Under the pieces are notes generated by a model that was not told where the DNA came from, did not search any database, and saw nothing but the letters and a program-made list of their open reading frames with translations. The position numbers and the translations under genes are program-made. From the NCBI GenBank assembly GCA_002328025.1, contig DCVE01000003.1, forward strand, positions 17,222 to 81,221: a stretch of DNA of 64,000 nucleotides, read 5' to 3'. How positions within the stretch are numbered: position 1 is the stretch's first letter; each line of letters opens with the position of its first letter. This stretch comes from Patescibacteria group bacterium UBA2196 (GTDB taxonomy: Bacteria; Patescibacteriota; Patescibacteriia; UBA2196). Positions 24,128 through 47,196 of the stretch are shown here, in pieces.

Positions 24128-24856
24128 TTATCTTATTTCACTCACCGCTTGTTCTAATTCAGTAAAACTATCCTTTTCCAGCCTTTTAGAACCGACAAAA
24201 ACATATGGCAAGCCGTCAATATATAGCTTTTGAGCGTCTTCCATGTCATAGCCGATTGATTCTAACATTTTACCAGAACTTAGACAAGTTTCGAAATTTT
24301 CTTTATTTAAACCCAATTCAGATGCCCATTGAAATATATTTTTTTCATTAATTTTTTCTTGATTATTAAACAACAAGTCACCATATTGCCAAAACTTACC
24401 CTGCTCTTTGGCACACAGCACCGCCTCGGCCGCCAATCTTGAATTAATGTTAGTTGACACTAAAAAATTCTTCCAAGCTAAAACCAACTTATCGTTCAAC
24501 AATTCTGGCTGATCAGATCGTATTTTGGCCAGAACCGACCACACCTGTTGGCAAGCTGGCAATGTAAAATCACAAAAAACTATCACCGGTGTTTCGCCTT
24601 GACCTAAATAGGCGTTATGCTGACGAATATATCTTTTATAAAAATCACTTGCCTTTTCTATTAAAGGATCACCCGCTGTGCTGGTTAAAGCCGAACTATT
24701 GTTTATAGTTGAATTATTATTGTTATTTTTATTAACTAAAAAATTTAACAAACTATATTTAAAATTTAAAAAAATAACCGCAAACAAAATCAACGCCATT
24801 AATGAAATGGCAATAAAAAAATAACGACCAACTTTTTTTTGCTTTTTATCTAACAT
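24128..24856 (-). CDS. membrane-anchored thioredoxin-fold/DsbA-like protein (putative)
   Basis: N-terminal TM; Cys pair VFCDFTLPACQQVW in a DsbA-like context; last gene of the T4SS-like operon, which fits disulfide formation in Cys-rich secreted partners. Confidence 0.4.
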   Translation of the reverse strand: MLDKKQKKVGRYFFIAISLMALILFAVIFLNFKYSLLNFLVNKNNNNNSTINNSSALTSTAGDPLIEKASDFYKRYIRQHNAYLGQGETPVIVFCDFTLPACQQVWSVLAKIRSDQPELLNDKLVLAWKNFLVSTNINSRLAAEAVLCAKEQGKFWQYGDLLFNNQEKINEKNIFQWASELGLNKENFETCLSSGKMLESIGYDMEDAQKLYIDGLPYVFVGSKRLEKDSFTELEQAVSEIR

Positions 24857-24859
24857 AAT

Positions 24860-26143
24860 TTATTTTAATTTTAAACTATAAATCTGTTCATTGTTTTCAT
24901 TCCAGAAAAAAAGACTTCGTCCATCACCCGCCAAAGATAAGTGGCTAATTTTAAAATTGTCATTACCATTTTGTTCCACGGGTAAAGCCAATAAGCGAGT
25001 TTGCCCCGTGCCCAAATCCACACGATAAATATCATCACCACCCTCATATGAAAGCTCTGGATATAACCCACTGCCTTGCGGTAAATTTTTTGGTACTGCA
25101 CAATAAATTTCATTAGTGCTGGCAAAAACGCATTTATCCACCCAAGTGTTTAGTTTTAAAGCTATATTATTATTGCCAATATTATCGCCACGCGCATCAG
25201 TTAGCCATAAAGCGGGGTTATAATTGGTGTCTTGCGAAACAATTTGATAAATTATTTTTTCACCACTTGGCGCCCACAAAGCTTTAAAACGCGTGCCTTG
25301 AATTTTTAATGATTTATAATTTTCACTCTCTTGGCCAATAAAAAAAACTTCTGACGAATTTAAACCTGAGGGTTTGGCATAAAACGCCACCACTTCTTCT
25401 TTGGGTGAAAAAACTGTTTGCACCTTATTTCCCTCTTCACCCAAATCCTCAATGTATTTGACTTTATTACCATCCGGATTGGCAATGGCCACAAAATTAT
25501 TTTCTGCATTAGCGCCTTCGTATTTAAAAGCAATTTCCGAACCAGACAAATTAAAAACTGGTTCTTTTACTTCTTTGGGTAAGGTGGTCTTTTTCTTGGT
25601 GGCAAAATTATAATAAACTTTTATACCATCTGGAAAAGTCATAATGGCCTGAGTGGAATCCGCTGACCAAACCACGTTTTCAACTGCAAAAAATTTTTCA
25701 TCCGACAATAATAATTTTTCCTTACCATCAGCCGAAAGCCGATAAAATTGACTGGAATTTTTATCATAATAAACCACACCCTGTTTATTGGGGCTCAAAG
25801 CCACGCCAACTGTCTTGTCGGCCGATAGTGGTAAAACATAAGTCGTGTTTCCTCTGGCAAAACTATCAGGTTGTTGAGCAACCGCCTGTCCACCAGTATT
25901 TGTTGCTGGCAAATTACCCGTTTGTGGTAGTTGTCCACCAGTCCCCAGCTGACCAGCGTTAAATCCACTTCCTGCTTCTGGTAACTGACCGGTAATTCCA
26001 GGTGGTAAATATCCCGGCTCTCCCGGCTGTGGTGCTGCGGTTCTAAAAAACATCCAGTAGATTAAAAATAGCAAAGCCAAACACACCACCACAAAACCCA
26101 TGACTAAAAATATTTTTTTATAATTAAATTTTTCTAAATACAT
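24860..26143 (-). CDS. secreted beta-propeller protein (TolB/PD40-like repeats)
   Basis: TM anchor, Gly/Pro/Gln-rich linker, then repeated WSADS.., SPKEEVVAF, WAPSGEKIIY, LSLAGDGRSLFF blades. Confidence 0.5.
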   Translation of the reverse strand: MYLEKFNYKKIFLVMGFVVVCLALLFLIYWMFFRTAAPQPGEPGYLPPGITGQLPEAGSGFNAGQLGTGGQLPQTGNLPATNTGGQAVAQQPDSFARGNTTYVLPLSADKTVGVALSPNKQGVVYYDKNSSQFYRLSADGKEKLLLSDEKFFAVENVVWSADSTQAIMTFPDGIKVYYNFATKKKTTLPKEVKEPVFNLSGSEIAFKYEGANAENNFVAIANPDGNKVKYIEDLGEEGNKVQTVFSPKEEVVAFYAKPSGLNSSEVFFIGQESENYKSLKIQGTRFKALWAPSGEKIIYQIVSQDTNYNPALWLTDARGDNIGNNNIALKLNTWVDKCVFASTNEIYCAVPKNLPQGSGLYPELSYEGGDDIYRVDLGTGQTRLLALPVEQNGNDNFKISHLSLAGDGRSLFFWNENNEQIYSLKLK

Positions 26144-26159
26144 ATTCTCATTTTTTTAA

Positions 26160-27533
26160 TTATGGACACACATGACATGGATCGTTTTGATAGGCGTCTT
26201 GTGAATTATACTGATCAGTTCCCGCACCCACTTCACATTTAGTTATGTTTTCACAATTTGGTTTATAAGCATTATTACCATCATATACACGATAGGTGTC
26301 ATCCGTACTAACACAACATATCAAGTTAGCCTCTTCATTGGCATAATTATCATCTATACAATATGTTAACTGATCTCCTGTTTCTCTGTGTTCGAAAGCT
26401 TTTCTTTTTCCACCGTCATCTGTCCAACAACCAACCGTACCATTTCCATCATTTTTAGGACCAGTCAGACAAGAAACCCTAGTCGTCGCAGCTGGACAGA
26501 ATATTCTTTTGGCCCACGCACATTCATCTGGATTTAAAAAACTATAGTCATTTCTAAACATACAAGAATATCCTAAAATTTTTTCGTCTTTATTATTATT
26601 TAAAGTTAAAGTTTGATCCATCATTTCATTAGCTTGGGTGCATCTCGTTTTATAACTATCCTTACACATTTTTGCCGGATCAGAACAATAAGAATAACCA
26701 CCATCAGTAAAACACGCTTCTTCGTGGGATTGGCAATAATTGCCCAAACAATAACTACCCATACTTAATTCTTTCTTGTTTGCGATATTTAATTCGTCTT
26801 CATAACCATATGAATATTTTTTACCACAAAGAAAAGCAATATTTGTACCACTAATTCCCTGTCCAACGGTTCCAAAAGGAATCTCAGCTGGATAATAAAC
26901 ATATCTTAATGTATGGCCAGTCGCCGGATCTGTACCATATGTACGAGGAAAATCATTGCACCAAATACTTGTTGGTTGTTCAATCTTTTCAATTCTAGTT
27001 ACGCCCGGCAAACTCAAATTCACTAAACGCGGGTTGATATTATATAAAATTACATACGAAGTTAAAGCTAAAACCAGTCCGGTAATCGCTGCATAGATTG
27101 TGGATTTGGCTTCACTCACACTACCCATATTACCAGCTGCAAAAATCCAACGCAGTCCGCCAATCATAATCATGAGCACGGCAATAATAGCAATAATACC
27201 AATTGAAAAATTATAAAATTTTTGCACATAAAACGGCAACGAATCAACCCAATAACATGTTTTTTCCACAACTTTAGTTGTGCCATTGACTATTACCACG
27301 TCATTACTATCAGTATATTTACACGCATCACTAATTCCCGGAATCGGGACTTGCACTCTAATTTTACCCACTGGCGGACAAATTGGATTTTTAGTAGCTG
27401 TGTCTATGTCGCACGCCTTGACACCACTTTGTGCCTTAACCACATTAGTCAACACAAAAAGCGCCACAATTAAATTCAATACAAATAACACCATTACAAC
27501 CATTAAAAATATTCTATTAATTTTTTTAATCAT
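26160..27533 (-). CDS. Cys-rich membrane/surface protein (T4SS-operon member)
   Basis: signal/TM, a central pair of hydrophobic helices (GIIAIIAVLMIMIGG...ITGLVLALTSYVILY), and a long C-terminal region with more than 30 Cys. Confidence 0.45.
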   Translation of the reverse strand: MIKKINRIFLMVVMVLFVLNLIVALFVLTNVVKAQSGVKACDIDTATKNPICPPVGKIRVQVPIPGISDACKYTDSNDVVIVNGTTKVVEKTCYWVDSLPFYVQKFYNFSIGIIAIIAVLMIMIGGLRWIFAAGNMGSVSEAKSTIYAAITGLVLALTSYVILYNINPRLVNLSLPGVTRIEKIEQPTSIWCNDFPRTYGTDPATGHTLRYVYYPAEIPFGTVGQGISGTNIAFLCGKKYSYGYEDELNIANKKELSMGSYCLGNYCQSHEEACFTDGGYSYCSDPAKMCKDSYKTRCTQANEMMDQTLTLNNNKDEKILGYSCMFRNDYSFLNPDECAWAKRIFCPAATTRVSCLTGPKNDGNGTVGCWTDDGGKRKAFEHRETGDQLTYCIDDNYANEEANLICCVSTDDTYRVYDGNNAYKPNCENITKCEVGAGTDQYNSQDAYQNDPCHVCP

Positions 27534-27541
27534 AAATTATA

Positions 27542-28072
27542 TTATGTTGAACATTCAAAACCAAAATATTGTGCCAAAGGGTTTAAAGCGGCCGGCGCCA
27601 AACTAACAATATCACAACTATAAGCATAAATTGCCGCAACTATAAAAATCATAATTAATAAAATCAGCCAAAACCACCAAGTCGCCACAAAAAAAGTACC
27701 CACGGCTTCCAAAACTGGCAAAATAACACTTTTGAAAAACATTTTTTTTGCCTTTTTTTCAACTGTTTTTTCTATTTCTGTCTTTGCTTGTTGTCTAGCC
27801 AGCTCTTGTATCTGCTGAAATTGACTGCGCGCAGTTTGCTCTTCCTCTTCACCGGCCAAGATATCGTTTTCCTCTTCTAATTGCTCTTGTTGGTCATCAT
27901 ATTCTTCCTCTTCGTCTTCATCATCATCATTTTGCACACCATCTCCCTGTTCTTCTTTAAAACGCGTGGCAACTAATTCTTGTTGTCTTTCGCGTTCCAA
28001 CTTAGCTCTTTCATAAGACGAAAGTGTATTGGTTTCATTTTTTTCATTTGGATTTTGAGTTTGATTTGTCAT
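27542..28072 (-). CDS. hypothetical membrane protein with highly acidic N-terminus
   Basis: DDDEDEEEEYDDQQEQLEEEND followed by C-terminal TM helices. Confidence 0.4.
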   Translation of the reverse strand: MTNQTQNPNEKNETNTLSSYERAKLERERQQELVATRFKEEQGDGVQNDDDEDEEEEYDDQQEQLEEENDILAGEEEEQTARSQFQQIQELARQQAKTEIEKTVEKKAKKMFFKSVILPVLEAVGTFFVATWWFWLILLIMIFIVAAIYAYSCDIVSLAPAALNPLAQYFGFECST

Positions 28073-28101
28073 TTAAAATTTGAATTTTGATATTTACGCT
28101 T

Positions 28102-28707
28102 CTACTGCCAACGTGCTTCGTCAATCTGCCACACTCCGCTGTCTTTAAGAAATACAATCTGTAAATCTTGATAATAAACACGCGAATTAGCTTCCGCACC
28201 AACCGATTCCTGTCGCTGCGTTGAAACAATTACTTGCGCATTTTTACTTTCTAAAATTTTTAGATTGGTGTTCAATGCGCGCGTGGTAATCCCATAATAG
28301 ACTGTTGGTAAAGGCCCCTGTTTTTTACTGACAACCAAAGAATCAATCCAGGTCTGCATCTTTAGGGTCATTAAAATCTTAACATCCAAAAGATTTTCAT
28401 AATTTGACTGATTTGAATAAGAGCCAAATCTTTCCGCAAAAGCCGCCGCTGTTTTGATTAAAAAACTTCTTTCTTTTTCTTCTGCCGTCAACTCTTTAAC
28501 CACTGGCGCGACTACCTTTACATTATTAATATCCGGCTGAGTGGTAGGTAACTTTTGTGTCACCTGGTTTTCATCAACTGGTGGTAAAACAATTGGTTCG
28601 GTTGATTCATTTTTACGTGCGCCAAAAATTGAAATTAATGCTAAAACAAGCACGGCAATCAACAGTATAATAACCACTATGGTAATAACAAGTCTGGTAC
28701 GGGACAT
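28102..28707 (-). CDS. bitopic membrane protein with NTF2-like C-terminal domain (VirB8/TcpC-like candidate)
   Basis: single N-terminal TM; C-terminus QDLQIVFLKDSGVWQIDEARW resembles NTF2-like folds; sits immediately downstream of VirB4. Confidence 0.35.
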   Translation of the reverse strand: MSRTRLVITIVVIILLIAVLVLALISIFGARKNESTEPIVLPPVDENQVTQKLPTTQPDINNVKVVAPVVKELTAEEKERSFLIKTAAAFAERFGSYSNQSNYENLLDVKILMTLKMQTWIDSLVVSKKQGPLPTVYYGITTRALNTNLKILESKNAQVIVSTQRQESVGAEANSRVYYQDLQIVFLKDSGVWQIDEARWQ

Positions 28708-28716
28708 AGAATAATA

Positions 28717-28839
28717 AATTTCTAATTTTCAATTTCTAATTTTCAAACAATTTTCAATAACTTAATTTCTAATGATTGAAACATTGAAAATTATAACATT
28801 AGAAATTGTCTAGAAATTGAAAACTAGAAATTAGAAATT
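28717..28839. repeat. large imperfect palindrome built from the AATTTCT/GAAATT motif
   Basis: left arm AATTTCTAATTTTCAATTTCTAATTTTCAA (28717-28746) and right arm TAGAAATTGAAAACTAGAAATTAGAAATT (28811-28839) are reverse complements; lies between the VirB4 stop and the next gene start. Confidence 0.5.
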
Positions 28840-28859
28840 AAATTAATATCTGTCACTTC

Positions 28860-30746
28860 TCACTTCTGCTCTTCTCCCAGCGAAGCATCAAATTCTTTTT
28901 TGGCTTCTTCAATTTCCAAAATCTGTCGCGGATCAGAGGTTATAATTTGGTCTTCAGTATAAGAAGCCACAATTTTTATGGCCGCATGTTTGGCACCGGC
29001 AAAAAATATACCTTCACCCACGCCCGATTCCAATAATAAATATTTTTCCCCTTGTGTCAAACGAAAAGTATTAGACACCACATCAATGGCCGAAGCGGTT
29101 TGTTTCAACAGAAACTGCAAAGCTGAATTATTTAAAATTGCCTGTCCATACGGTGAAGCCAAAAAATCATTTACATCCTGTGTGATGGTAGTGACACCCA
29201 AATAATACTTGCGACATCTTTTGACTAAAGCAAAAATAAATTTAGCCGAATCTTCGTGTTGCATCAACCACCACGCCTCATCAATAACCAAAATTCTTTT
29301 CTTTAAAACCGACCGTACTTTATTCCAAATATAATTTACAATGGTATAAATGGCCATTGGCCTAAGTTCGTCTTCCAAATCCCGCACACTATAAACCACC
29401 AACTGATTATTCACATCCACGTTGGTCGGATAATTTAATAAACCAGCAAAGGTGCCATTGGTATATTTGTCCAATTTTTGCGCTAATAAATCACCGCCTT
29501 CCATGTTGGCCAACACTTCCTGCAAATCCGACATAATAGGAAATTGAACACCTTCAACCAAAAGATTAGTATCGGGCGTAATATCTTTTTTGGCGTAAGT
29601 TTCAAGCAAAGCTCGGTCTAAAACCGAATCTTCAACATGCGACACCTCACCAATCATAATTCGTAATAAACCCTTTAGGGTAATAACGGCCGAACGAATG
29701 ATATCACCTGTACTGGTTTCTTCATCCATTGGTTTGGGTAGGTCAAAAGGATTAATTTTGGAATCAGAATTTAAAGAAATATTAACATATGTACCCCCGA
29801 CCGCCTCGGCCAAATATTGATATTCCCGTTCTGGGTCAATTACAATTACATCCGTACCCAACATTAAACTGCGCAAAACTTCCAATTTTATGGCATAACT
29901 TTTACCCGCTCCCGAAGTGGCAAAAACCACGGAATTGGCATTTTGCAAACTAAAACGATCAAACAAAATTAAAGAATTATTATGCCGGTTTATACCATAT
30001 AAAACTCCCGAATCAGAAGACAATTCGGCTGAGACAAAAGGAAAAGAAGAGGCGCACGGCGAAGACTGCATGTTAAACCCCACACTTAACTGATCTAAAG
30101 CCATGGGCAAAGTAGAATTGAAACCCTGTTCGGCTTGCCAATAAGCACGGCGCGAATACACCATCTTGGAACCAATTAAACTTTCAATTCTTTCCGTTAG
30201 CAAATTTAAATCTTTTTGATTATCAGCATACATGGTAATATACAGACCAAAATGGAAAAAATGTTCCACGCCCTGAGTCAGATCATCGCGCAATTGTTCG
30301 ATATCTCTAAGCGCCGTCTCGGTGTGCGGATCTCGCGGAGCGCCTTTTTCTGCATCGCCAGAAAGTTGCGCTTCTAAAACACCCACCTTGTCACGCAACT
30401 GTTTTAAAATTATTTTTGATTCCATGGGATAAAAATACATGGCAATGTCCAGAGTGGCTGAAAAATCAATAATTGGTTCAAACCAACCTACGTCAATATA
30501 ACGCGGGTAAGTGGTCACAAAAACAGTCCGCGTCCATTTGCCGCCCAGTTGTAAATAATTAGGCGCGACTTTAAATGAGGTTGGTGAAATTAAATCCAAA
30601 ATAGAAGCCGCCCCTTGACGATAGGCTTGTTCTGCCATCAAAAGTTCTTTTTCTGAAACCACCTTTTCAGTTTCGCTAGCCAGCTTCTTTTCCTCAGAAA
30701 CCTGTGGTGTTAAAGTTTGAATTTTGGGTAATTCTTTACCAAACAT
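28860..30746 (-). CDS. type IV secretion ATPase, VirB4/TrbE/PrgJ-like
   Basis: Walker A SGAGKSY, Walker B ILVIDEAWW; N-terminal membrane-proximal VirB4 region (FKVAPNYLQLGGKWTRTVFVTTYP). Confidence 0.85.
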   Translation of the reverse strand: MFGKELPKIQTLTPQVSEEKKLASETEKVVSEKELLMAEQAYRQGAASILDLISPTSFKVAPNYLQLGGKWTRTVFVTTYPRYIDVGWFEPIIDFSATLDIAMYFYPMESKIILKQLRDKVGVLEAQLSGDAEKGAPRDPHTETALRDIEQLRDDLTQGVEHFFHFGLYITMYADNQKDLNLLTERIESLIGSKMVYSRRAYWQAEQGFNSTLPMALDQLSVGFNMQSSPCASSFPFVSAELSSDSGVLYGINRHNNSLILFDRFSLQNANSVVFATSGAGKSYAIKLEVLRSLMLGTDVIVIDPEREYQYLAEAVGGTYVNISLNSDSKINPFDLPKPMDEETSTGDIIRSAVITLKGLLRIMIGEVSHVEDSVLDRALLETYAKKDITPDTNLLVEGVQFPIMSDLQEVLANMEGGDLLAQKLDKYTNGTFAGLLNYPTNVDVNNQLVVYSVRDLEDELRPMAIYTIVNYIWNKVRSVLKKRILVIDEAWWLMQHEDSAKFIFALVKRCRKYYLGVTTITQDVNDFLASPYGQAILNNSALQFLLKQTASAIDVVSNTFRLTQGEKYLLLESGVGEGIFFAGAKHAAIKIVASYTEDQIITSDPRQILEIEEAKKEFDASLGEEQK

Positions 30747-30800
30747 ACAAGATAATTTATAGTGTCTTAATTTTAAAAATTAATTCATTGGAAATTGTTT

Positions 30801-30829
30801 AAAAATTAGAAATTAGAAATTGAAAATTT
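30801..30829 (-). promoter_or_regulatory. AATTTCT direct-repeat motif upstream of the VirB4 gene
   Basis: on the coding strand TTTTCAATTTCTAATTTCTAATTTTT lies ~55-80 nt upstream of the ATG, followed by TATAAAT. Confidence 0.4.
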
Positions 30830-30832
30830 ACT

Positions 30833-31546
30833 CTACTCTTCCACCTGCATTAAATCTGTGGACAACATTTTTTGCTGACTATAGACTTCCAAATTGTAAG
30901 TGTTATAAAACAATTCAATTAAACTTTGAGTATCTAATTGCACAGCCGAAACACCCATGGATGATAAACCAGAAACCACTCGATCAACCCTTTTTTCAAT
31001 CTGTTTTTTATAATCAAATAAAACTTTTTCACTCATTCGAATGGCAGAAACTGGCGACAGAGCATGACCCAAACGCACAAAAAAATTCTCTTTGGTTTCT
31101 CCGCCCGGAATATACGGCACCACAACATAAAACTTTTTTGACATAATATCCCCCAGTTCCACCAATTCTTTTATGTATTGTACATATTCCTTGGTTTGGA
31201 TACGCAGCAATTCGTTGGTTTGGACTTTTTCTTTAACTGCAATATCAGCCAAATATTTATCAATGTTTAATTTTCTGGACTGCACCACAATCTGCAATGG
31301 AAAATCAATAAAATTTAAAAAGTTAACATATTGGCTCACAATGCCTTCCTGCTCCTCCGCTGATTTTAAGGAAAAATTAATTGACGAAGCCAGTAATACT
31401 ACGCGGATAGAACCGTCCTTCATCAACAACATATCGGAACGAATTTCCGCTATTTCCATATATTGTTGGGTGGACGGTAATGTTGATTTTTGTTGAATTT
31501 CTTTGCCAGACATAATAAAAATTAATTTACAATTTATAATTTTCAA
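30833..31546 (-). CDS. stand-alone protein resembling the VirB4/CagE/TrbE N-terminal domain
   Basis: LLMKDGSIRVVLLASSINFSLKSAEEQEGIVSQYVNFLNFIDFPLQIVVQSRK follows the PF03135-like pattern (kDGs...l.g.d...eE.e...n.L..L...q...r); no Walker motifs. Confidence 0.4.
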   Translation of the reverse strand: MKIINCKLIFIMSGKEIQQKSTLPSTQQYMEIAEIRSDMLLMKDGSIRVVLLASSINFSLKSAEEQEGIVSQYVNFLNFIDFPLQIVVQSRKLNIDKYLADIAVKEKVQTNELLRIQTKEYVQYIKELVELGDIMSKKFYVVVPYIPGGETKENFFVRLGHALSPVSAIRMSEKVLFDYKKQIEKRVDRVVSGLSSMGVSAVQLDTQSLIELFYNTYNLEVYSQQKMLSTDLMQVEE

Positions 31547-31617
31547 TTTCTAGATAATGTATTAATTATTTAATTTTCCATGTCTAAATTTTATAATATT
31601 AAAAATTAGAAATTATC
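31530..31617 (-). promoter_or_regulatory. AATTTCT-motif copies upstream of the 237-aa gene
   Basis: AATTTATAATTTTCAATTTCTAGA and AAAAATTAGAAATTA. Confidence 0.35.
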
Positions 31618-32052: not shown

Positions 32053-32059
32053 AAAAAAG

Positions 32060-32140
32060 GTGTGGGGAATTTTGATGCCTTCGGCATATCAAAGTTCCCG
32101 TTTTTGCTACAAAAATCCAAGCAGTTGGATTTTTGCCTAA
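32060..32140 (-). terminator. tandem hairpins (terminator-like) downstream of the 401-aa gene
   Basis: GATGCC-TTCG-GCATATC and ATCCAAGCAGTTGGAT hairpins with T-runs on the minus strand; probable transcription-unit boundary. Confidence 0.4.
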
Positions 32141-32149
32141 CGCAAAAAC

Positions 32150-37257: not shown

Positions 37258-37346
37258 TTTTTAAATATCAAATTACAAATTTCCAACGTTAAACTAATGC
37301 TAAATTTCAAATGTAAAAACTTTTCAACCTTTGATATTTAATCATT

Positions 37347-37397
37347 TGAAATTGATTGAAAATTTGGCATTTGGATTTTTAAATTTCTAATTTTTTG
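37347..37397 (-). promoter_or_regulatory. AATTTCT-motif copies upstream of the VirB6-like gene
   Basis: GAAATTGATTGAAAATTT and TTAAATTTCTAATTTTTTG in the 140-nt gap before the start. Confidence 0.35.
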
Positions 37398-40300: not shown

Positions 40301-42058
40301 CACATTGGTATTCTTAGCTGCCGATAACGGCAAAGTAACGAACGAGGCGCTGGCTACCGCAACCTGATTAGGTGTGCCATTATCGTTTGCTTGGACTGTA
40401 ATTTGATATTTTGTATTTGGAGTTAAACTGCTTAAATTAAATTGATGTAAATTTCTAGGGGTGGCTTCTGGAACAATCCCTCCCGCTCCAGCATCAACAT
40501 TAGTCACAGTATTTATTAAATGTATCACTTGTCCAACTGCTTTGCCTTGCTCTGCGCCACCCGTGGTAATAAAAGACGCCACAGCAACGTTAGATTGCGG
40601 CGTTACCACCAAGTCTTTAATCTCCAGTTTAGTGGTTATTGCCTGGCAATCATAGTAAACATTCGCAGCTGTTGCAGTCCTGACTGGAGTTTGTTGTGAA
40701 TGACTGGTGATGGTATAAGAACCACTGGCTGCCACCCCAGTCGCTGTCAATGAGTGATTCAATTCATACAATGCTTTGGTGGCTGTGACTGCCGGTGATC
40801 CGACAACCGTTCCGACAACTCTTAAATTACTATCTGCAGCAAAATTAGTCAGCCAAGAAACAGTTAAATCATAACTACCAGTTGTGTTGCGCTTACAGTT
40901 AATATTTTTTTCAGTGATAAGTTCTATCTTACTCAATGGTGGTATTTCCCGCACTGTATAGGTACCACCAATTCCACTGGCGTTAGTAATAGTTCCCTGT
41001 CCATCATCTAAAACAAATTGCGAACCCGCCACATTAATAGCCGTCGTCGGACTGGTTAAATTAACACCTGTCACAGTTAAATAAGCAATGATAGTATCCC
41101 CTCTCAAACCACGCGTATCTGTTTGCGGCGTGATGGTGCCATTATTAATATCGCCATCGCCATACGTCCCGCGCACCAAAGTCAACTGCCCAGTTGACCG
41201 ATTGTGCGTTTCGCTGGAGTCGGCCGCCACAGGAAAACTTGGTGCGTCGCTAATTTCAACATTTAAATATTGTGGGTCATATTTAATCTGTGCTCCAACC
41301 GCCACAATATCTTGCGTATTGGTTTTAGCTCTAACTTCTATTTGTGTTTCACCGCCCAAGTTAACCGTACCTGTGACTGGCATTAAATAAACTCCATCTG
41401 TATTTTGCGGGCTGGAAACAATATTATAAGTAGCGTTATCCAAAGCAAAAGACACACCGCTGTTATAAGTGGTGTAGTTTAAATCCACCAGACTTGTAAC
41501 TGAAGCAACAAATTTAAAAGCTAATGTGTTGCCAATAGAACTGGCCGGCGGCGTGAAATTAAGTGAGGCTATGGAATAATGACCAGAGCCACCAGCTGCA
41601 ATTATTTCTGGACCGAGTGGATCTGTTTTTGTAATTCTTATTACTCCAGCAATAGCGTCGACACTACAACTTAAATCATTTACATACAACGGATCAATAG
41701 TACAAGCAATCGAACCCGTGGGAACGCCAGTATACTGAAACTCTATTCGCATATTTGAAACCCCCAACGTCGATGAACTTGAATTATCTAACATTAAATG
41801 AACTGTGTTAGTGCTACCAGCATTTACATCTCCAGAGTCTGGATCAAAATATACACGGAAGATTGGGCTTTGTCCAAAAACAAAATAAATTATCAAACTC
41901 ATCGCCAATAAAACCAAGATCAAACCCAGCACTAAAAAAATCTTCTTTTTGGGTGTCGAAAACGCAAACCACCGTTTAAGCCGTAAAAATAAAGCCTGCC
42001 GGCCCTGCGGGGCGGGTTTAAAATTTTGGTTTTGATTAGTTGCTTCTGGAAAAACCAT
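37400..42058 (-). CDS. giant (1552 aa) membrane-anchored Cys-rich surface protein
   Basis: N-terminal TM anchor; long Thr/Ser/Asn/Gly-rich beta-type extracellular region; C-terminal third with dense Cys spacing (CTNSGKLDQPCSNSGDCSTNSQIGAC...). Confidence 0.6.
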   Translation of the reverse strand: MVFPEATNQNQNFKPAPQGRQALFLRLKRWFAFSTPKKKIFLVLGLILVLLAMSLIIYFVFGQSPIFRVYFDPDSGDVNAGSTNTVHLMLDNSSSSTLGVSNMRIEFQYTGVPTGSIACTIDPLYVNDLSCSVDAIAGVIRITKTDPLGPEIIAAGGSGHYSIASLNFTPPASSIGNTLAFKFVASVTSLVDLNYTTYNSGVSFALDNATYNIVSSPQNTDGVYLMPVTGTVNLGGETQIEVRAKTNTQDIVAVGAQIKYDPQYLNVEISDAPSFPVAADSSETHNRSTGQLTLVRGTYGDGDINNGTITPQTDTRGLRGDTIIAYLTVTGVNLTSPTTAINVAGSQFVLDDGQGTITNASGIGGTYTVREIPPLSKIELITEKNINCKRNTTGSYDLTVSWLTNFAADSNLRVVGTVVGSPAVTATKALYELNHSLTATGVAASGSYTITSHSQQTPVRTATAANVYYDCQAITTKLEIKDLVVTPQSNVAVASFITTGGAEQGKAVGQVIHLINTVTNVDAGAGGIVPEATPRNLHQFNLSSLTPNTKYQITVQANDNGTPNQVAVASASFVTLPLSAAKNTNVVLKVERDRVCDTWLYCRSAVTVKSALNQNQSLCFDVGLCNRLNPKTKDCEVAANLGQLGITSANQTFPSPNLVYGNTVVATEKEQAAVAAEKKFKNLSGYSKVGMDWGGIKVVEGYKHYALMNTMGENFNVPNGNFELSDVWPWKNNSLGEIGLMKDILHAGNNFLQVAVEKEQLAALTGTGDAYAGAMVPLGEIKATNDVVIAFNAGTAGETKAIRLAARTTEVGSGNVSYRNLYNTAFSIGGAGTSTVKKIDVRLPAGYTELIFNQLRSDNSAADSFSKAFYIDNVSAQSVLHVQNTVSTNAEGSYVARMCRLYPSSSAPACQYTDWSGGKLYNGWQGFCVEPDPGKPSQCLNWWPVDIIPGESDVFGNDPQVGYKDRKPLYYCLEAAGNYPFVRHRNPGTISDGIKDSELGTGRPAAWNLMYKNWDDQCDSSNPSDIAHCGWTGGSGRITTIATVEEANLRLVDIERIVLTPLCEEGGKDRHCFSKKDNDNAYLVLDRKNNWSASLSLGGKSNLDDWNKIRSILGNCTSTSSDFFGVHAVFEAGKYGGLQAGLCNHGGYVGFVRYGVTYYLREPCNVIAQVIDPYGQGYAWSNKILANGWNDASNILNYNYNQDYAPYGAAVPPAKDTNFPDRWTDPLFVQPPAVSSSYMAPYQVRAGSPFAIDQKVQKYCTNSGKLDQPCSNSGDCSTNSQIGACAVVVGKSGINYEPTCIAGDSESLGKACTEDYDCGFGLSGQTGTCMGIKLSEGQKQKIAGDYKQGTERLSNLFARGLNVWYWYADDNKYSQICSYNSGVDCGSPSDRNYATCVALRDACWDARATKGTAPGIDHLTVNNQTRGRVVGTGNIGVTIKFNSNVNINQLPLTGISVDWGDGKINDIVNLRIAPHVYNSNPTLNDPHIMTHTYTCQEGGVGWSARDGSCLFEPRVQIKDNWGWCNNGVRGTNSSICPASWQNSGVEVMVFPR

Positions 42059-42064
42059 AAAAAA

Positions 42065-42733
42065 TTATTTGATATTTAAAGTCAGATTATTTAAAGTTAA
42101 TTTCATCTCGGTTGCCAGTCCATTGTCCAAAAACATTTTAGCTTGCTCGGGAATTAATTTCATTTCTACGGTCCCAACCTGTAACGCCTTAAAAGTCAAA
42201 ACTGCTAAAATTCCATTAGTTCCAGTGTAGCCGTCATCACTATCTTGATAATTTGCATCACCCGGCTTACCGCGCGTGACTTCCAAACTATTTTTTTTAA
42301 CTTCATTCACAATACCCATATTTAAAACTGAATTTTTCGTCTCAGCAATGTTATTTTTACCTGCAAAAGACACAAGTTTATCATCAAAGCTTACGACTGC
42401 TTTGGCCAAAACAATATTTGCGCCCTGAGTGTCCAAAACAATATTGACCTTAAATTCATCGCCTAAAGCAACCTCTTTTTTATCGCTTATTAAACTGATT
42501 GTACCCCGCCGTTCGAGTGGTAAAACTTCTTTTTGCACTACCGGTTTGGTATTTAATTGTTGTAAAGCATTTTGAACGTTGTTATTTTGAATTTGTTCTG
42601 TGGGTTTGATAAAAATAAACACCAAAACAATCACTAGCATCAAAACCGCCGCCATAACTGCTGCCAAAAACCACATTTTTTTATGATTTTTATTAATTGG
42701 ATTATTGTTTGTTGGTAAAATGTTTTCGGTCAT
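42065..42733 (-). CDS. membrane-anchored cohesin-like domain protein (putative)
   Basis: N-terminal TM; mature domain ISLISDKKEVALGDEFKVNIVLDTQGANIVLAKAVVSFDDKLVSF...GILAVLTFKALQVGTVEMKL matches the cohesin beta-sandwich pattern. Confidence 0.35.
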   Translation of the reverse strand: MTENILPTNNNPINKNHKKMWFLAAVMAAVLMLVIVLVFIFIKPTEQIQNNNVQNALQQLNTKPVVQKEVLPLERRGTISLISDKKEVALGDEFKVNIVLDTQGANIVLAKAVVSFDDKLVSFAGKNNIAETKNSVLNMGIVNEVKKNSLEVTRGKPGDANYQDSDDGYTGTNGILAVLTFKALQVGTVEMKLIPEQAKMFLDNGLATEMKLTLNNLTLNIK

Positions 42734-42759
42734 AAAATTATTTTTAATTATTTATTATT

Positions 42760-45700
42760 TTATCTTTCTCCGGTTCTTAAAAAGCAATGCTTGGTGGGAT
42801 CAATATTTTCCAAATCGCAAGCTGTGCCGCTTTCGTTACCGACTGACTCAACATTTTTATACCAATAATATTCACAGGCCGGTGTTTGATTGGCGCCATA
42901 AACGTTATAAAGTGAAGAATATTGATAAGGCAACAAAGATGCATCGCACAATTCCGGCACATACGGATCTTGATATTCCTGACAACCACTTTCTGCACCG
43001 TCACATAAAGCGCTCCAGCTGGTACAAATACCACTCTGCGCAAAAGTAATATAATCTATGCAGTCATTATTGCCATTACAAATATTACTATCTGGGTGAG
43101 TTGCAGATCGTCCACCTAAACAGTATTTTTGTTCGCCACTTAATTCTTTGGAACTGACACAAAAATCTCCAGTCCCACAGTTTGCATCGCTAACACAGTT
43201 TTTACTGGTATTATTATAACAATAACCATTTGTAGTCACACAAAAATCACCAGTTCCAGTCACGCAGTTTGTATTGACGGTGCATTTTACACTTGTATTA
43301 TTATAACAATAACCATTGGAACTGGGGCAAGTCTTACCTTCTTCACCAGCAATCCACCAACCAAATTGACCGTTATAGTCTTTAAACTCACACACTCTTT
43401 TGCTTGGATTTTTATACAAAGCCGCACCACCAGTATATTTATAATTCACACAACTTTCATTTTCATTTGTACAGGTTTGGTTTTGTTTAATTACGGTTAA
43501 AGTATCAGTGAAGCTAAATTTAGCGGTGTCGGTTGGATTAAAACGATTACGCGCCAAAAGACCCAGCTTGGCGCAACCGGGAGTTTGACATAGTTTATTA
43601 CGATCATAAACATAATAGACTGGTTGCAAAACTCCGGCTGTATTTTTTTGACCAAAGACCTCACAACCCACTACTTCTTCCAAACACAGCTTAGAAAACT
43701 TTTGTAAATTCCACACCCTGCCAGTATTGTCTTTATATGCTTCACAAGAACTCATACCGATGATGTTGTCACACACAGGCGCGGCAGTCCAGGAATTTTT
43801 AATAAACAAAATATTATCAATTTTTTTCAACACCACATTATCAAGATACAAATCACCCATATTTTCAATTCTTAAAATTGAATCTGTATAATCACCGGCT
43901 GGTAATTCACCAAAATTAACTGCCGCTTGTCCATCAAACAATTGCCATTCGTTTGTAATGGTACCACTCACTGTGCCTGATATAACATTGGTTCCACTAG
44001 CCAAAGAAAAGGCAAAGGTGGCTGATCCTGTACCTTTGGCCAAAAATGATAACACATAGCTACCGCCGGCCACTAAATCACCGTTATTTAATTTGTGTTC
44101 AGTATTATCAGCCAAGTGTAAAGAGTGTCCACCACGCCGCACAGATTCATTACTGATGGTTCCCGCTGTCCAACCTTCTACAGATCCACCTTCAAAATCA
44201 TCACTTAAAATTACTTGATAATTATAACTGGAATTATCACGATATAACCGACAACCAGCATTATTGGCTTGACAACGCGTAGACAACGATGGCATAGCCA
44301 TATAAAGACACTGCCCAGTCGTCCATTTACCATTGGTTGTTTCGCAATCAGTTTGATTAGCGATTGTGCGCCTGTAAGGATGACAATCTTCGGCGGCAAA
44401 AATAACTGTAGCAAAATCTACCGCATAATATTGATTAGTCGTTGAATTATAAACTTCGCGACAATCAATTCCCGCCGCACCAAAATTGCACACTGTACCC
44501 ACCGGCGTATTACCACTGGCTTGCAGTTGCCACTTTTTCAACTGAAAACCAGATGTATCAGAACCTTCCCAGGTATAAAAAGTTTGCACATCTGGATCCG
44601 TCGGGTTAACACACATTCTTAAATAAGAAAAATATTCTCGTCCTTCACCGCCTCTGGCCACTTCATCTAAATTAGTAAATTCATCACAACCAGCTTCAGT
44701 ACACTTTGTGGCTGTGGTGGATAAAAAAGATTCAGCCGCCACTCCAGCTTCAAAATTGGTTTCTTTTTGTGTATAGGTTCTAAAACCAACGCACACGGCC
44801 GGACACTCATCATTCCAATTACCAGTTAACACATCGGCATCAGTGCAAGAATTAGTACCATCAGTACATTTACGTTGATTAATTACTGCAGACACCACTG
44901 GAGATTTAATAGTGACTGGTGTATACAAGCGACACGAAACATCGTCTTCTGCACACGACAAAGCAAAATTAGCACAATATTTATTGCCACTTAAAACGCA
45001 TTGTTTAATATCTTCACGCCAATAGTGACCATCAGCTACACAAGCGGCCTGATTTAAACCAAATTCAATAGTCGTATAGCCAGCACAACCGTTAATTGCT
45101 GGGTTAGCATACTCTGGCGCTAATTTTAAATTAACATCAGTCGCTAAATAACCAGCCGCATTTGGGTTATTAAAACCACCACTTACCAAAGCACTCGCCT
45201 GCTGTTGCGACAATGGTGTCTGATTGGGATTTAAAATTCTAGTTAAAGCCTGGCAACCTTCTTCTCTGGCATCACAAGCCTGTTCACTGGCGTAATATCT
45301 TAAACTTGTTTCTGTTGGGCATGCCCAAGTATCGTCTGTTGGATTTAAATTTTTACAATATGCATTACAACCAGCCGCTCCACAACTTTCCAATGTGTTG
45401 GTTAGATAAGCTGCCTCTTCCAAACCAGTTGAGGTTAGACTTTGGCAAGAATTAAAATATGAAGGACATGAACTACCCTGAATTCTCCAAATTGGTTTTT
45501 CAGCCACGCAATAACCAAATTCATTGCAATCCTTACCATTATCGCTTTCTGCAATACAACTTCGCTCCTTGGCACAATATGTGTTGCGCACAATGTAAGT
45601 GGAAAATTCATCGGGCGGACACTCTATTTTATCATTAAAAGAAGTATCTCGATCACAAACCTCGTTTGTTGACACCACGTCTGGACCCGGACCTTCCAAA

Positions 45701-47196
45701 TCACACACCGTAATTGGAGCTTTTAGTTGCCAATTGGGATCAACTAATCTATAAAAAGGTGACTCTGGATTGTCATAAGCATCCAATAAATCTTGCAAAG
45801 TCATTTTTACACCGGCTCCGGCCGCATCTTTATTAAAATTTTTAATATACTCTGCCGCCAATTCCCACCCGACTGGCACAATCCGATATTTACGTAAAAT
45901 CAAAATTGAACGCATAGGAAATCCGTCTCTAAAACTCGGCTCAGTTTGGCTGGTTGGATTAAAACCAAAAACAGCGTTGGGCTTTTTTTTGGCCAGTTCG
46001 GCCACAGTATTTTTTTGCTCAATCGCGGTGGCAAAAGTCGTATCAATGGTGTTGCAATATTGCGCGCCGCCATATTCAGATGTACCACAACTGGCTGAAA
46101 GTTCATTCACCACATTAATCTCTCCGCCGACGTTATAATCCGGTTTTAAAAGTTCGGCAAACTGATCTGTAGCTGCTGGCCCACTAGAAAGACTGCCAAA
46201 TAAATTTAAAACAATTGTTCTGTTTGTGTCAGCCGCCGGATTCATGCCTTTTGTAAAGGCCCGATTCAAAAGTTTTGAAACCAAAGTGTTGGTAAAAAGA
46301 CCAATTGCATCAGCCGCAGCTTCACCTGTATAAACACCATAGGGTTTTAAAGAATCACTAATCATACCAGCCGCATAGCCACTATAAAAAGCAGCCGGAG
46401 TTTTTATTTTCCCAGTAATGGTACTTTCTAAGTTTTTAAAACCTTGATTAGCCTGTTGGTTAATCTTGGCTGTTTCTTTTTGTAAAATCTGTTTTTGTCT
46501 AGCTTGATCCACCATGGTTAAATAAATTCCAAAATCATTCGCCCCAGGATGAAAAGCTGTGGACACTCCAAACAGATCATTAAATTGTATTTTTTTTAAA
46601 TCACCAACATTTTTTTTGATGTCCACCCAATCACATGGTGGACGTTGCGGTTCAAAAGCCGAGCGAGCATAGATATCAAGTTGAGCTTTTAAAAACGGAC
46701 GATCAATTGGTTGACAAAAATTCACCCCCCAGGTTTTTCCTATTTCAACAAAGGCCACACCCAAAGCTTCATCGCCAACTTTTTGCAAATACTTATCAAA
46801 GGGCAAATCCACATACAAAGGTTGCTGACCTTTGCCGCCTGTAGCCAGCTTAGTGGCATAATCATAAGCCACACGATTAAATAAATATTTAATACCGTTT
46901 GTGTAAGTCAACGCTGCTGCATTTTCTCCATATATTTTAATTGTCTCCCAGACCGTTTTTAAAATTGTCATTAAACGTGCACCAATATCAGCTGTTACCA
47001 AACCCGGGGCTGCTACAGATCTTAGAGTTGGAATCGAATCTAATGACTTAGTTCTTGTGCTATTTAATTGTTGAGAAATCGGTATTGCCTCCTGTGCTTT
47101 CTGTGCTTTAACATTTTCTGGCCACAAAAAAACCACAGCTGTCAAAGAAAACAACATGGAAAAAAGTGTGACTGAGATTAAAAGTTTTTTGAGCAT
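42760..47196 (-). CDS. giant (about 1478 aa) secreted Cys-rich protein
   Basis: the ORF-track start at 47220 is a TTG; the in-frame ATG at 47196 begins a proper signal peptide MLKKLLISVTLFSMLFSLTAVVFLWP. More than 90 Cys; tandem ~84-bp repeats at 43158-43326 encode NGYCYNNTS.KC..NC.TG.GDFCV. Confidence 0.6.
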   Translation of the reverse strand: MLKKLLISVTLFSMLFSLTAVVFLWPENVKAQKAQEAIPISQQLNSTRTKSLDSIPTLRSVAAPGLVTADIGARLMTILKTVWETIKIYGENAAALTYTNGIKYLFNRVAYDYATKLATGGKGQQPLYVDLPFDKYLQKVGDEALGVAFVEIGKTWGVNFCQPIDRPFLKAQLDIYARSAFEPQRPPCDWVDIKKNVGDLKKIQFNDLFGVSTAFHPGANDFGIYLTMVDQARQKQILQKETAKINQQANQGFKNLESTITGKIKTPAAFYSGYAAGMISDSLKPYGVYTGEAAADAIGLFTNTLVSKLLNRAFTKGMNPAADTNRTIVLNLFGSLSSGPAATDQFAELLKPDYNVGGEINVVNELSASCGTSEYGGAQYCNTIDTTFATAIEQKNTVAELAKKKPNAVFGFNPTSQTEPSFRDGFPMRSILILRKYRIVPVGWELAAEYIKNFNKDAAGAGVKMTLQDLLDAYDNPESPFYRLVDPNWQLKAPITVCDLEGPGPDVVSTNEVCDRDTSFNDKIECPPDEFSTYIVRNTYCAKERSCIAESDNGKDCNEFGYCVAEKPIWRIQGSSCPSYFNSCQSLTSTGLEEAAYLTNTLESCGAAGCNAYCKNLNPTDDTWACPTETSLRYYASEQACDAREEGCQALTRILNPNQTPLSQQQASALVSGGFNNPNAAGYLATDVNLKLAPEYANPAINGCAGYTTIEFGLNQAACVADGHYWREDIKQCVLSGNKYCANFALSCAEDDVSCRLYTPVTIKSPVVSAVINQRKCTDGTNSCTDADVLTGNWNDECPAVCVGFRTYTQKETNFEAGVAAESFLSTTATKCTEAGCDEFTNLDEVARGGEGREYFSYLRMCVNPTDPDVQTFYTWEGSDTSGFQLKKWQLQASGNTPVGTVCNFGAAGIDCREVYNSTTNQYYAVDFATVIFAAEDCHPYRRTIANQTDCETTNGKWTTGQCLYMAMPSLSTRCQANNAGCRLYRDNSSYNYQVILSDDFEGGSVEGWTAGTISNESVRRGGHSLHLADNTEHKLNNGDLVAGGSYVLSFLAKGTGSATFAFSLASGTNVISGTVSGTITNEWQLFDGQAAVNFGELPAGDYTDSILRIENMGDLYLDNVVLKKIDNILFIKNSWTAAPVCDNIIGMSSCEAYKDNTGRVWNLQKFSKLCLEEVVGCEVFGQKNTAGVLQPVYYVYDRNKLCQTPGCAKLGLLARNRFNPTDTAKFSFTDTLTVIKQNQTCTNENESCVNYKYTGGAALYKNPSKRVCEFKDYNGQFGWWIAGEEGKTCPSSNGYCYNNTSVKCTVNTNCVTGTGDFCVTTNGYCYNNTSKNCVSDANCGTGDFCVSSKELSGEQKYCLGGRSATHPDSNICNGNNDCIDYITFAQSGICTSWSALCDGAESGCQEYQDPYVPELCDASLLPYQYSSLYNVYGANQTPACEYYWYKNVESVGNESGTACDLENIDPTKHCFLRTGER

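Follow-up and report, generated by a model that had tools for sequence, protein, structure and literature searches.

Two primary studies have described the type IV secretion systems (T4SSs) of Patescibacteria. Wang et al. (2023; PMC10633639) reported an essential T4SS of Southlakia that has pilins and is devoid of a coupling protein or relaxase. Quiñonero-Coronel et al. (2025; PMC12102498) found a Patescibacteria VirB4 clade related to MPF_FATA, with TrsD as the commonest component, together with PrgI, VirB6, PF18895 pilins and almost no relaxases, with KsgA nearby and, in ABY1, with comF, recG and radA nearby. Here, we analyse a gene cluster from Patescibacteria group bacterium UBA2196, which lies within a 64,000-nt stretch of contig DCVE01000003.1 (positions 17,222 to 81,221) that we refer to as the window. 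Its genes are designated A to N in their order along the minus strand, and a further protein, ac263, is encoded upstream of A (Table 1). The original prediction, which was made from the sequence of the window alone, held that systems of this shape are only sketchily described. This view does not stand, because the two studies above and a 2025 review (PMC12857230) treat them, and the core of the cluster is already known and matches the published Patescibacteria T4SS point by point. Our analysis makes a modest but real addition to this core, namely a giant partner, a predicted VirB8 fold and a long Cys-rich pilin-domain protein. The overall explanation that we favour, at a probability of roughly 0.7, is a chromosomal Patescibacteria T4SS with a giant extracellular module directly upstream.

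The Patescibacteria T4SS known from Southlakia epibionticum (SEML1_0006-0019) is chromosomal and monoderm, as is the system in the window. The two have in common an MPF_FATA-related VirB4 with a TrsD-like gene next to it, PrgI/VirB3, a probable VirB6-like protein, a PF18895 pilin domain, the absence of a nearby relaxase, and KsgA and comF as neighbours. They differ in that the Saccharibacteria locus has six small pilins, essential peptidase/lysozyme genes and no VirB8 in a structure-based proteome screen, whereas the window carries one long Cys-rich pilin-domain protein, no hydrolase, a clear predicted VirB8 fold, and the giant protein plus ac263. The MPF_FATA systems (pCF10 Prg/Pcf, pIP501 Tra, CTn2 CD1110 and pGO1 Trs) share with the window a VirB4 that scores over the CD1110 equivalog cutoff, PrgI, TrsD and the lack of outer-membrane components, and the predicted fold of J matches PrgL, TraM/TraH and TcpC. 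In contrast to these systems, the cluster has no relaxase, coupling protein (T4CP), VirB1-type hydrolase or PrgB-type adhesin, sits in a housekeeping context, and has a pilin domain, which MPF_FATA systems are normally without.

A third comparison is provided by the type found in Mycoplasma integrated conjugative elements (ICEs) and in Pontibacillus (Mbov_0397 VirB4 and Mbov_0395 pilin-like protein), whose local gene order is as in the window and to whose Mbov models H and L show weak similarity in NCBIfam. The Pontibacillus locus (L088; megaplasmid NZ_CP062975.1 of Pontibacillus sp. ALD_SL1, 351801-361354) is a compact, T4SS-like Firmicutes locus beside flagellar genes on an 898-kb replicon typed as non-mobilizable. 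It encodes, in order, two pilin-like proteins, a 779-aa polytopic protein, a PrgI-like protein, a TrsD-like protein, a CD1110-type VirB4 and a 1,050-aa M23 peptidase. This locus is matched by our family hidden Markov models (HMMs) of the pilin domain and of G, H and I, whereas the D and J profiles do not match it, and its VirB4 is the nearest relative of I outside the candidate phyla radiation (CPR), at 36% identity. The Mycoplasma/Pontibacillus type differs from the window in its pilins of ~150 aa, which have no ectodomain, in the M23 peptidase after VirB4, and in having no giant Cys-rich protein.

Results

The T4SS core

All 14 minus-strand open reading frames (ORFs) that had been assigned to the cluster were confirmed, and its Gram-positive-type core was borne out, with PrgI, a split VirB4 and a pilin recognised by HMM and VirB8 by fold. 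The VirB4 ATPase I matches NCBIfam conju_CD1110 at 3.9e-103 (346.1 bits, cutoff 325; model positions 145-729 of 752), and in Pfam it matches P-loop_TraG (1.4e-29) and AAA_10. Its best plasmid homologues come from Bacillota and Actinobacteria, at no more than 36% identity. H matches VirB4 models only in their N-terminal part (NCBIfam VirB4_plasma, Mbov_0397, positions 83-233 of 894, 1.1e-8; CD1110, positions 27-106 of 752) and TrsD weakly (NCBIfam, 1.8e-3), in agreement with its earlier description as a free-standing VirB4 N-terminal-domain protein. A phmmer search of PDB with H gave no match. Orthologues of H bear the TraC-like domain PF26593, and a relative of H adjoins VirB4 on the Pontibacillus megaplasmid (2.9e-38). 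By these matches, H is predicted to supply the VirB4 N-terminal region that is absent from I and to correspond to TrsD. G is, as anticipated, PrgI/VirB3-like; it scores well over the Pfam PrgI cutoff (43.3 against 27 bits; 5.4e-11) and is present in 56 of the 82 loci that we searched.

J had been described as an NTF2-like bitopic protein that might be VirB8-like. Its predicted fold and topology uphold this description, although a sequence-level HMM match does not: neither Pfam nor NCBIfam yielded a VirB8/PrgL match, and a profile search of PDB returned only transmembrane (TM) noise. J has a TM segment at residues 1-33, and its AlphaFold2 model, built from a 59-sequence alignment, is confident (predicted local distance difference test score, pLDDT, 89.2) and shows a helix (residues 3-29) joined by a linker to an α+β cone (residues 75-200). 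This model most closely resembles VirB8-family proteins, with structure comparison values of 13.3 for DotI, 13.1 for Bartonella VirB8, 13.0 for Agrobacterium VirB8, 12.7 for the Rickettsia VirB8-like protein, 12.4 for the IcmL-like protein and for TraE, 12.2 for TrwG, 12.0 for R64 TraM and 11.5 for TcpC. The fold, the bitopic topology and the place directly after virB4 together argue for a VirB8-like protein, and we regard the VirB8 fold of the model as a high-confidence prediction.

D has at least six hydrophobic/TM segments within its first ~350 aa and then a C-terminal region of ~650 aa that is charged and hydrophilic, an architecture that agrees with the "extended VirB6" type of the 2025 review (PMC12857230). 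Its 249 homologues are all from Patescibacteria or unnamed metagenome sequences, the best being 46% identical, and conservation is confined to the TM core. The VirB6/TrbL-like assignment given to D earlier is weakly supported by this polytopic profile and by Pfam TrbL/VirB6 matches in 8 of 33 homologues, although D has no HMM match of its own and three homologues that were re-scanned singly remained under the gathering cutoff (TrbL, 16.7-24.6 bits against 25.9; model positions 9-182 of 215). We therefore describe D as probably VirB6-like.

Eighty genome loci, which belong to Falkow-, Kerfeld-, Kuenen-, Uhr- and Veblenbacteria or to unnamed Patescibacteria, share the order D-E-F-G-H-I-J, and three further assemblies (L001-L003) have all 14 genes in exactly the order of the window. 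The relatives with this system point to an ABY1-class-like lineage. That the same order is kept across class-level relatives rules out an ICE. No relaxase, VirD4/T4CP, integrase, transposase or peptidoglycan hydrolase was detected among the scanned window ORFs of at least 100 aa, so that the lack of a relaxase, VirD4 and cell-wall hydrolase noted earlier for the cluster extends across 64 kb. No long flanking direct repeats were found, no integrase adjoins the tRNA cluster at 20261-20630, and the GC content is 0.36-0.42 within the region against 0.31-0.40 in the flanks. The housekeeping flanks, the missing relaxase, T4CP and integrase, and the conserved order confirm the view of the system as chromosomal and non-conjugative, and we consider it very probable that the cluster encodes a non-conjugative T4SS of the Patescibacteria type.

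A giant Cys-rich protein upstream of the core

The region upstream of D is occupied by a giant Cys-rich protein, which is present in the window in two parts. A and C were considered as paralogues, and this was rejected since they show no similarity to one another; they are consecutive parts of one ancestral protein. Single proteins of 2,200-3,200 aa in more than 20 loci align to A (~70-1330) and then to C (~580-1530), such that A is collinear with the first ~1,300-1,800 residues of the single giants and C 580-1530 with their C-terminal third. This alignment indicates that the clade of the window carries a split version, in which cohesin-like modules (B and the N-terminal part of C) were apparently inserted and divided the giant into A and C. 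A consists of an N-terminal hydrophobic signal/TM segment, a conserved Cys-poor N-domain and a Cys-rich region, with a CBM_4_9-like β-sandwich at about residues 1003-1135 (18.7 bits). The Met at residue 9 of A (ATG at 47196) is invariant in 30 homologues, which favours this ATG over the TTG at 47220. The true start is thus probably 47196, giving 1,478 aa and coinciding with the end coordinate of the original prediction. C has a TM segment and, up to residue ~580, cohesin-like and Fn3-like modules that are specific to the clade (weak fn3 match); the conserved Cys-rich part (~580-1552) follows. B, which resembles residues 214-360 of C, is restricted to the clade of the window and occurs in only four loci (L001-L003 and L018). 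Its designation as a cohesin-like anchor is backed by nearly complete coverage of the Pfam Cohesin model (positions 6-138 of 139; 6e-5), although the score of 23.7 bits lies just under the cutoff of 24.1.

The giant is closely tied in position to the T4SS core, from whichever side the comparison is made. Fifty-five loci are informative, having at least 8 kb of DNA upstream of the VirB6-like gene, and in 45 of these a same-strand ORF of at least 1,200 aa lies upstream of D; 43 of the 45 are A/C homologues. The mean Cys content of these upstream giants is 3.8%, compared with 0.74% in other ORFs, and in 14 loci the giant ends less than 100 bp from the start of D. When five loci were instead picked through giant family proteins, all five had the order LeuRS-(Sua5)-KsgA-ac263-giant-D-E (LeuRS, leucyl-tRNA synthetase), with F, G, H, I and J coming next where the DNA reaches, save for inserted housekeeping genes. 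Synteny thus strengthens, but does not prove, the proposed association of the giant proteins with the T4SS.

The giant family comprises proteins of 2,200-3,600 aa, with 1,389 representatives at 50% clustering (1,098 at E<=1e-30). The names on record, "hypothetical protein" or "dockerin type I domain-containing protein", are none of them functional. Among 16 family members, CBM_4_9 was matched in 11 (best 1.3e-14), PA14 in one and Dockerin_1 in three (6e-17), the last three all being among the 14 full-length single-gene giants of other loci. No PDB relative of the conserved N-domain was found by profile search, and no known T4SS domain was detected in A, C or their homologues. Keyword searches of the literature found no description of an association between the giant and a T4SS; no mention of such a module was found by term searches of the two primary T4SS papers, and the 2025 survey (PMC12102498) detected no adhesins. 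A likeness by description only exists to the Omnitrophota, in which giant genes occur beside secretion systems (West-Roberts et al. 2023, preprint). There, too, a very large extracellular multidomain protein is kept next to a secretion/pilus system in small-celled, possibly predatory or epibiotic bacteria, whereas the phylum is another, the system is type II or type IV-pilus-like, and the proteins are much larger.

The acidic protein ac263 (Asp+Glu 18%) has one TM segment at residues 72-96 and TSP3-like Ca-binding repeats, and its orthologue in L093 has a faint TSP3_bac match. In 21 of the 82 loci, and likewise in the five giant-anchored ones, a homologue of ac263 immediately precedes the giant and in some cases overlaps its start. 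A 444-aa protein elsewhere in the window (1634-2968, minus strand) carries bacterial TSP3 repeats (PF18884), similar to the Ca-binding-type repeats of ac263, and may be another surface protein in the same style.

Two further giants, both membrane-anchored, are encoded upstream on the minus strand, namely a GH5 cellulase-like protein of 1,230 aa (50620-54312) and a Golvesin_C protein of 1,345 aa (54326-58363). They share a two-segment dockerin-like module (e.g. DFNCDGRIDIIDFGILLSFW), for which Dockerin_1 scored 22.8 bits against a cutoff of 22.9 in a segment of the 1,345-aa protein and 15.9 bits in a segment of the 1,230-aa protein. Together with B and the N-terminus of C, these sequence modules hint at a cohesin-dockerin surface assembly. 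The features held in common with cellulosome-type scaffolds are the near-full Cohesin model in B, the dockerin-like modules of the upstream giants and the strong Dockerin_1 matches in three giant homologues. However, the window's own cohesin and dockerin scores are just under the Pfam cutoffs, and there is no sign of polysaccharide degradation as a purpose.

The pilin-domain protein and the DsbA-fold protein

L had been recognised as a Cys-rich two-helix membrane protein, and its hairpin proved to be a T4SS_pilin domain (PF18895; residues 97-165, 28.9 bits, Pfam cutoff 26.6). The protein is composed of a signal peptide, a Cys-containing N-terminal piece of ~60 aa, the two-helix pilin hairpin (97-166) and a Cys-rich ectodomain of ~290 aa, in which 13 cysteines are invariant and four more are kept in at least 90% of sequences. 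Its length of 457 aa is atypical for a VirB2-like pilin. PF18895 is found in 23 of 26 L homologues, two of which are named "pilin" by NCBI, and in remoter pilin-domain proteins the fusion partner is instead an SLT, M23, VanY or C39/C70 peptidase domain. The window has one pilin-like gene, and the pilin-domain gene was found in only 9 of the loci; in L018 and L039, the giant and D are separated by pilin-domain genes.

For N, the earlier designation as DsbA-like is correct in terms of the thioredoxin/DsbA fold, with Pfam matches over cutoff to DSBA (5.7e-12, 46.2 bits) and Thioredoxin_4 (6.5e-11, 43.1 bits), but the CxxC of the active site is replaced by LPAC. The two closest orthologues (L094 8745-9446 and L095 7726-8439) have DVAS and SPDC at this position, whereas distant homologues have CPYC or CSFC and two others are without Cys at the active-site column. 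A second Cys pair, C148 and C191, is invariant. With LPAC in place of CxxC, N is not a canonical disulfide oxidase, which suggests a role that is non-catalytic or non-canonical. N is therefore not citable as an oxidase in favour of the disulfide-stabilised extracellular structure that had been proposed for the cluster. The part of that proposal that remains is the conserved cysteines of A, C and L, from which we infer that these ectodomains are disulfide-rich. A contains 67 Cys (4.5%), C 37 (2.4%) and L 24 (5.3%), compared with a share of 0-0.7% in E, F, H and I, which have no TM segment. An N-terminal hydrophobic segment is present in A, B, C, J, L, M and N, which are hence probably extracytoplasmic.

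Remaining cluster genes

E, F and K are lineage-specific proteins that are conserved among the relatives. E directly follows the VirB6-like gene and has no match in Pfam or NCBIfam. It was found in 11 loci by phmmer; a first-round E HMM matches the gene after D in all five giant-anchored loci (2e-16 to 7e-54), and the iterated profile does so at position D+1 in 64 loci. The iterated profile also caught genes at D+2, and a paralogous relationship of E and F was rejected as profile drift, with an hhalign probability of 0.07. F lies between E and PrgI in 58 of the 82 loci and has a helical middle region and a conserved C-terminal domain of ~105 aa, for which a PDB profile search gave noise only.

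K has a very acidic N-terminal region (Asp+Glu 20% in the whole protein) and TM segments at residues 111-161. By iterated profile, its family occupies position D-1 in 46 loci, that is, between the giant and the VirB6-like gene. We tentatively conclude that a K-like gene lies between the giant and D in most relatives, bearing in mind that low-complexity sequence could inflate such matches. M, which had been called a TolB-like propeller, does have a weak match to the NCBIfam TolB propeller (4.9e-6), albeit far under the cutoff, and contains a Pro/Gly-rich linker; one orthologue has a faint Tricorn_N match. M was found in 3 loci only in the 82-locus search, plus L094 and L095.

Gene arrangement and intergenic repeats

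The window has a GC content of ~36%, and nearly all of its genes lie on the minus strand (Table 1). The cluster is flanked upstream by LeuRS, an HD protein, Sua5/TsaC and KsgA, and downstream by ClpB, a ComF-like gene, three tRNAs, DnaG and RpoD. The LeuRS of the window (59107-62643, minus strand; 1,178 aa) contains inserted NUDIX and Ser_hydrolase domains. Among relatives (L090 1868-5305, L091 2979-5840 and L089 3087-6263), one has the same pair, one NUDIX only and one a Ham1p-like (ITPase) domain, and these inserts are a lineage-variable enzymatic insertion. The 405-nt gap between Sua5 and KsgA (49486-49890) holds the region's only sizeable plus-strand ORF (49548-49886, 112 aa), which has no match in Pfam.

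A single 23-kb operon, as originally predicted, cannot be inferred from this arrangement. Gaps within the cluster measure 3-152 nt, and the neighbouring housekeeping genes are spaced alike in a window that is co-directional throughout, with ClpB beginning 4 nt past N. Promoter and terminator scans were at chance level (79 observed versus an expected 63±9 for promoters, and 20 versus 16±5 for terminators). In relatives, MetK, AhcY or RadA sit among the T4SS genes. Four loci (L014, L055, L092 and L093) have S-adenosylmethionine synthetase and a probable S-adenosylhomocysteine hydrolase (judged by its N-terminal sequence) between E and F; in L005, the VirB8-like gene is followed by RadA (19034-20380, recognised from the zinc finger at its N-terminus); and L090 has a run of five PEP-utilizers-domain genes after E (24342-30041). 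The housekeeping genes interleaved in relatives indicate that the cluster is not one mobile or operonic unit, and a single 23-kb operon is neither supported nor excluded by these data.

The larger intergenic gaps contain a palindromic AT-rich repeat. Its motif CAATTTCTAATTTCTA occurs in 10 copies (no more than two mismatches) against 0.23 expected; all are intergenic, and nine of the ten lie within or at the edge of the cluster. The repeat is built from 7-nt TAATTTC units in direct runs, with inverted runs 50-100 nt on, and in the I-J gap it forms a predicted hairpin of ~115 nt (-36.7 kcal/mol, z = -4.9). Present upstream of A as well as in the G-H, H-I and I-J gaps, the motif is the sole cis-feature common to the region upstream of A and the core; it recurs in L001 (G-H and M-N gaps) and in L003 (G-H gap). 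It could be an operator, a signal for RNA processing or stability, or an element resembling repetitive extragenic palindromes (REP) or miniature inverted-repeat transposable elements (MITE).

Between ac263 and the giant, and flanked by the repeat, lies a 116-aa 23S_rRNA_IVP gene (47265-47615, minus strand) of PF05635, a family that includes the Avd protein of diversity-generating retroelements. Such genes also occur in L040 (four copies), L048, L070, L082 and L095 (3322-3702), scattered between T4SS genes as if mobile. A diversity-generating retroelement was considered, given this gene upstream of A, and was rejected, as the window contains no pair of repeats resembling template and variable repeats (TR/VR) and no reverse transcriptase.

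Table 1. Genes of the cluster, selected neighbours and the intergenic repeat, with coordinates in the window unless a locus is named
Feature	Coordinates	Strand	Description
A	42760-47220	-	1486 aa from TTG start; predicted N-terminal half of split giant Cys-rich surface protein
B	42065-42733	-	222 aa; membrane-anchored, cohesin-like; N-terminal TM
C	37400-42058	-	1552 aa; predicted C-terminal half of split giant protein
D	34255-37257	-	1000 aa; probable extended VirB6/TrbL-like polytopic membrane protein
E	33420-34235	-	271 aa; TM-less, probably cytoplasmic
F	32150-33355	-	401 aa; TM-less core protein
G	31618-32052	-	144 aa; PrgI/VirB3-like, two TM
H	30833-31546	-	237 aa; predicted free-standing VirB4 N-terminal-domain protein, TrsD/TraC-like
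I	28860-30746	-	628 aa; VirB4 ATPase, CD1110 / MPF_FATA type
J	28102-28707	-	201 aa; bitopic, predicted VirB8-like; NTF2-like domain at residues 75-200
K	27542-28072	-	176 aa; acidic N-terminal region, C-terminal two-TM hairpin
L	26160-27533	-	457 aa; VirB2-like pilin-domain protein with Cys-rich ectodomain
M	24860-26143	-	427 aa; bitopic, β-propeller-like ectodomain; clade-restricted accessory
N	24128-24856	-	242 aa; membrane-anchored DsbA-fold protein, degenerate CxxC
ac263	47673-48464	-	263 aa; acidic, bitopic; outside the originally predicted interval
KsgA	48538-49485		Upstream flank
ComF-like gene	20827-21555		Two genes downstream of the cluster
Palindromic AT-rich intergenic repeat	28708-28859	-	Largest copy (I-J gap)
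Repeat copies	30773-30832, 31565-31615, 37330-37389, 47205-47246, 47618-47677, 59022-59106
Repeat copies in relatives	L001 15052-15172, 21949-22048; L003 15562-15624

Discussion

What is known of T4SSs in general suggests how the products of the cluster may work together. H and I would constitute the VirB4 motor, docked by G (VirB3) to a translocon of D and J (VirB6 and VirB8) in the single membrane, so that VirB4, VirB3, VirB6 and VirB8 would form an ATP-driven translocon. L and the giant CBM-bearing protein (CBM, carbohydrate-binding module), together with ac263 and K, may form or decorate the extracellular part that touches the host envelope or cell wall. Such a machine could move macromolecules between epibiont and host, with the export of proteins and the import of nucleic acids or nutrients as candidate roles. 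We infer contact-dependent epibiont-host transport. That the giant protein functions within the T4SS machine is close to an even bet, leaning slightly to the negative. A bolder version, to which we give somewhat less credence, is that the ABY1-type T4SS has an extra extracellular module consisting of the disulfide-rich giant (with CBM and sometimes dockerin), ac263 and K. This module would be a host-contact or conduit part replacing adhesins and pilus tips, would have been split and rebuilt with cohesin-like modules in the clade of the window, and would include the ectodomain of L in the same structure.

Several observations weigh against a T4SS equipped with such a giant module. D itself has no match in Pfam, NCBIfam, PDB (phmmer and profile) or plasmids, a tblastn search with its TM domain against 72,556 plasmids gave no match, and its VirB6 status depends on sub-threshold HMM matches in relatives. 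The structural model of L has low confidence, and no structural match was obtained for its ectodomain. The 2025 survey (PMC12102498) finds many VirD4 homologues far from virB4, and as the window spans 64 kb, a T4CP or relaxase may be encoded elsewhere in the genome. The function of the Saccharibacteria T4SS has been described as 'completely unknown' in a perspective article. Ten of the 55 informative loci have no upstream giant, and KsgA and LeuRS are as syntenic with the giant gene as the T4SS is; because these housekeeping genes keep its company equally well, adjacency is not proof of function.

The last two observations are also those on which the strongest competing explanation draws. Here the giants A/C, B and ac263 would be independent surface adhesins or envelope proteins, merely neighbours of the T4SS in a rarely rearranged region. 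The retention of LeuRS, Sua5 and KsgA in order within the same block, the loci with no giant upstream of D, and the lack of a known T4SS domain in A, C and their homologues would all be expected of such neighbours. However, mere proximity fits poorly with an adjacency that holds in both directions (45 of 55 D-anchored and all five giant-anchored loci), with a giant that ends within 100 bp of D in 14 loci, with pilin-domain genes placed between the two in L018 and L039, and with one common intergenic motif flanking both A and core genes. We consider independent adhesins unlikely, while giving this explanation more weight than any other competitor of a T4SS with a giant extracellular module.

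A role in DNA uptake, in which a competence-type T4SS would feed DNA to ComF and RadA, is improbable. The precedent is the Helicobacter pylori ComB system, which likewise has no relaxase or coupling protein and is non-conjugative, and competence genes do occur near the system in the window (ComF, and RadA in relatives). In the window, a ComF-like gene is encoded two genes beyond the cluster, several relatives have ComF or RadA immediately after the VirB8-like gene, comF, recG and radA are found in ABY1 T4SS loci (PMC12102498), and DNA or nucleotide import has been named as a candidate role in a perspective article. On the other hand, ComB is a diderm system composed of VirB2-4/6-10 that takes up DNA, whereas there is no uptake evidence for the system in the window. 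Competence in Southlakia needs ComEC and type IV pili, and the T4SS is still essential in a ComEC deletion. In addition, the cluster is without ComEC or a DNA-binding component, ClpB stands between N and ComF, and the ComF adjacency could be plain synteny.

Still less probable is a pure adhesion or pilus organelle, in which VirB4 would power a pilin fibre with Cys-rich ectodomains and there would be no secreted substrate. This idea has the pilin-domain protein and the carbohydrate-binding modules of the giant family in its favour, as well as a 2026 preprint on tubular structures at the CPR-host interface that may be T4SS pili. Against this, the 457 aa and bulky ectodomain of L are ill-suited to a tight VirB2 helical fibre, and the single pilin-like gene has counterparts in just 9 of the loci. 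The D-J core is far more widespread than the pilin-domain gene, which indicates that the core can exist without a pilin nearby. Lastly, a decayed or domesticated remnant of a Firmicutes-type ICE that no longer works is hardly credible: the CD1110 / MPF_FATA type of VirB4, the plasmid-borne nearest non-CPR homologues and the lack of a relaxase, T4CP and VirB1 would fit, but all genes are intact, their order has been kept across many genera while the families diverged to 20-50% protein identity, which implies long purifying selection, there is no integrase, att-like flanking direct repeat or clear GC anomaly, and the related Saccharibacteria system is essential.

The Patescibacteria T4SS is widespread in the phylum and is essential in the sole species tested. 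The cluster leaves this picture as it is but offers three handles on the system. The first is a component with a high-confidence predicted VirB8 fold in a phylum where VirB8 has been thought mostly missing or undetectable, and the second is a pilin-domain protein with a large Cys-rich ectodomain. The third is a very large family of unannotated giant Cys-rich CBM proteins (~1,400 cluster representatives), whose genes keep tight synteny with the VirB6-like gene; in this lineage such a protein nearly always precedes the T4SS, a possibly new observation, as the two seem not to have been linked before. If the giant does belong to the machine, it would be an obvious candidate for host-surface recognition and would provide a route to the host range and the substrate.

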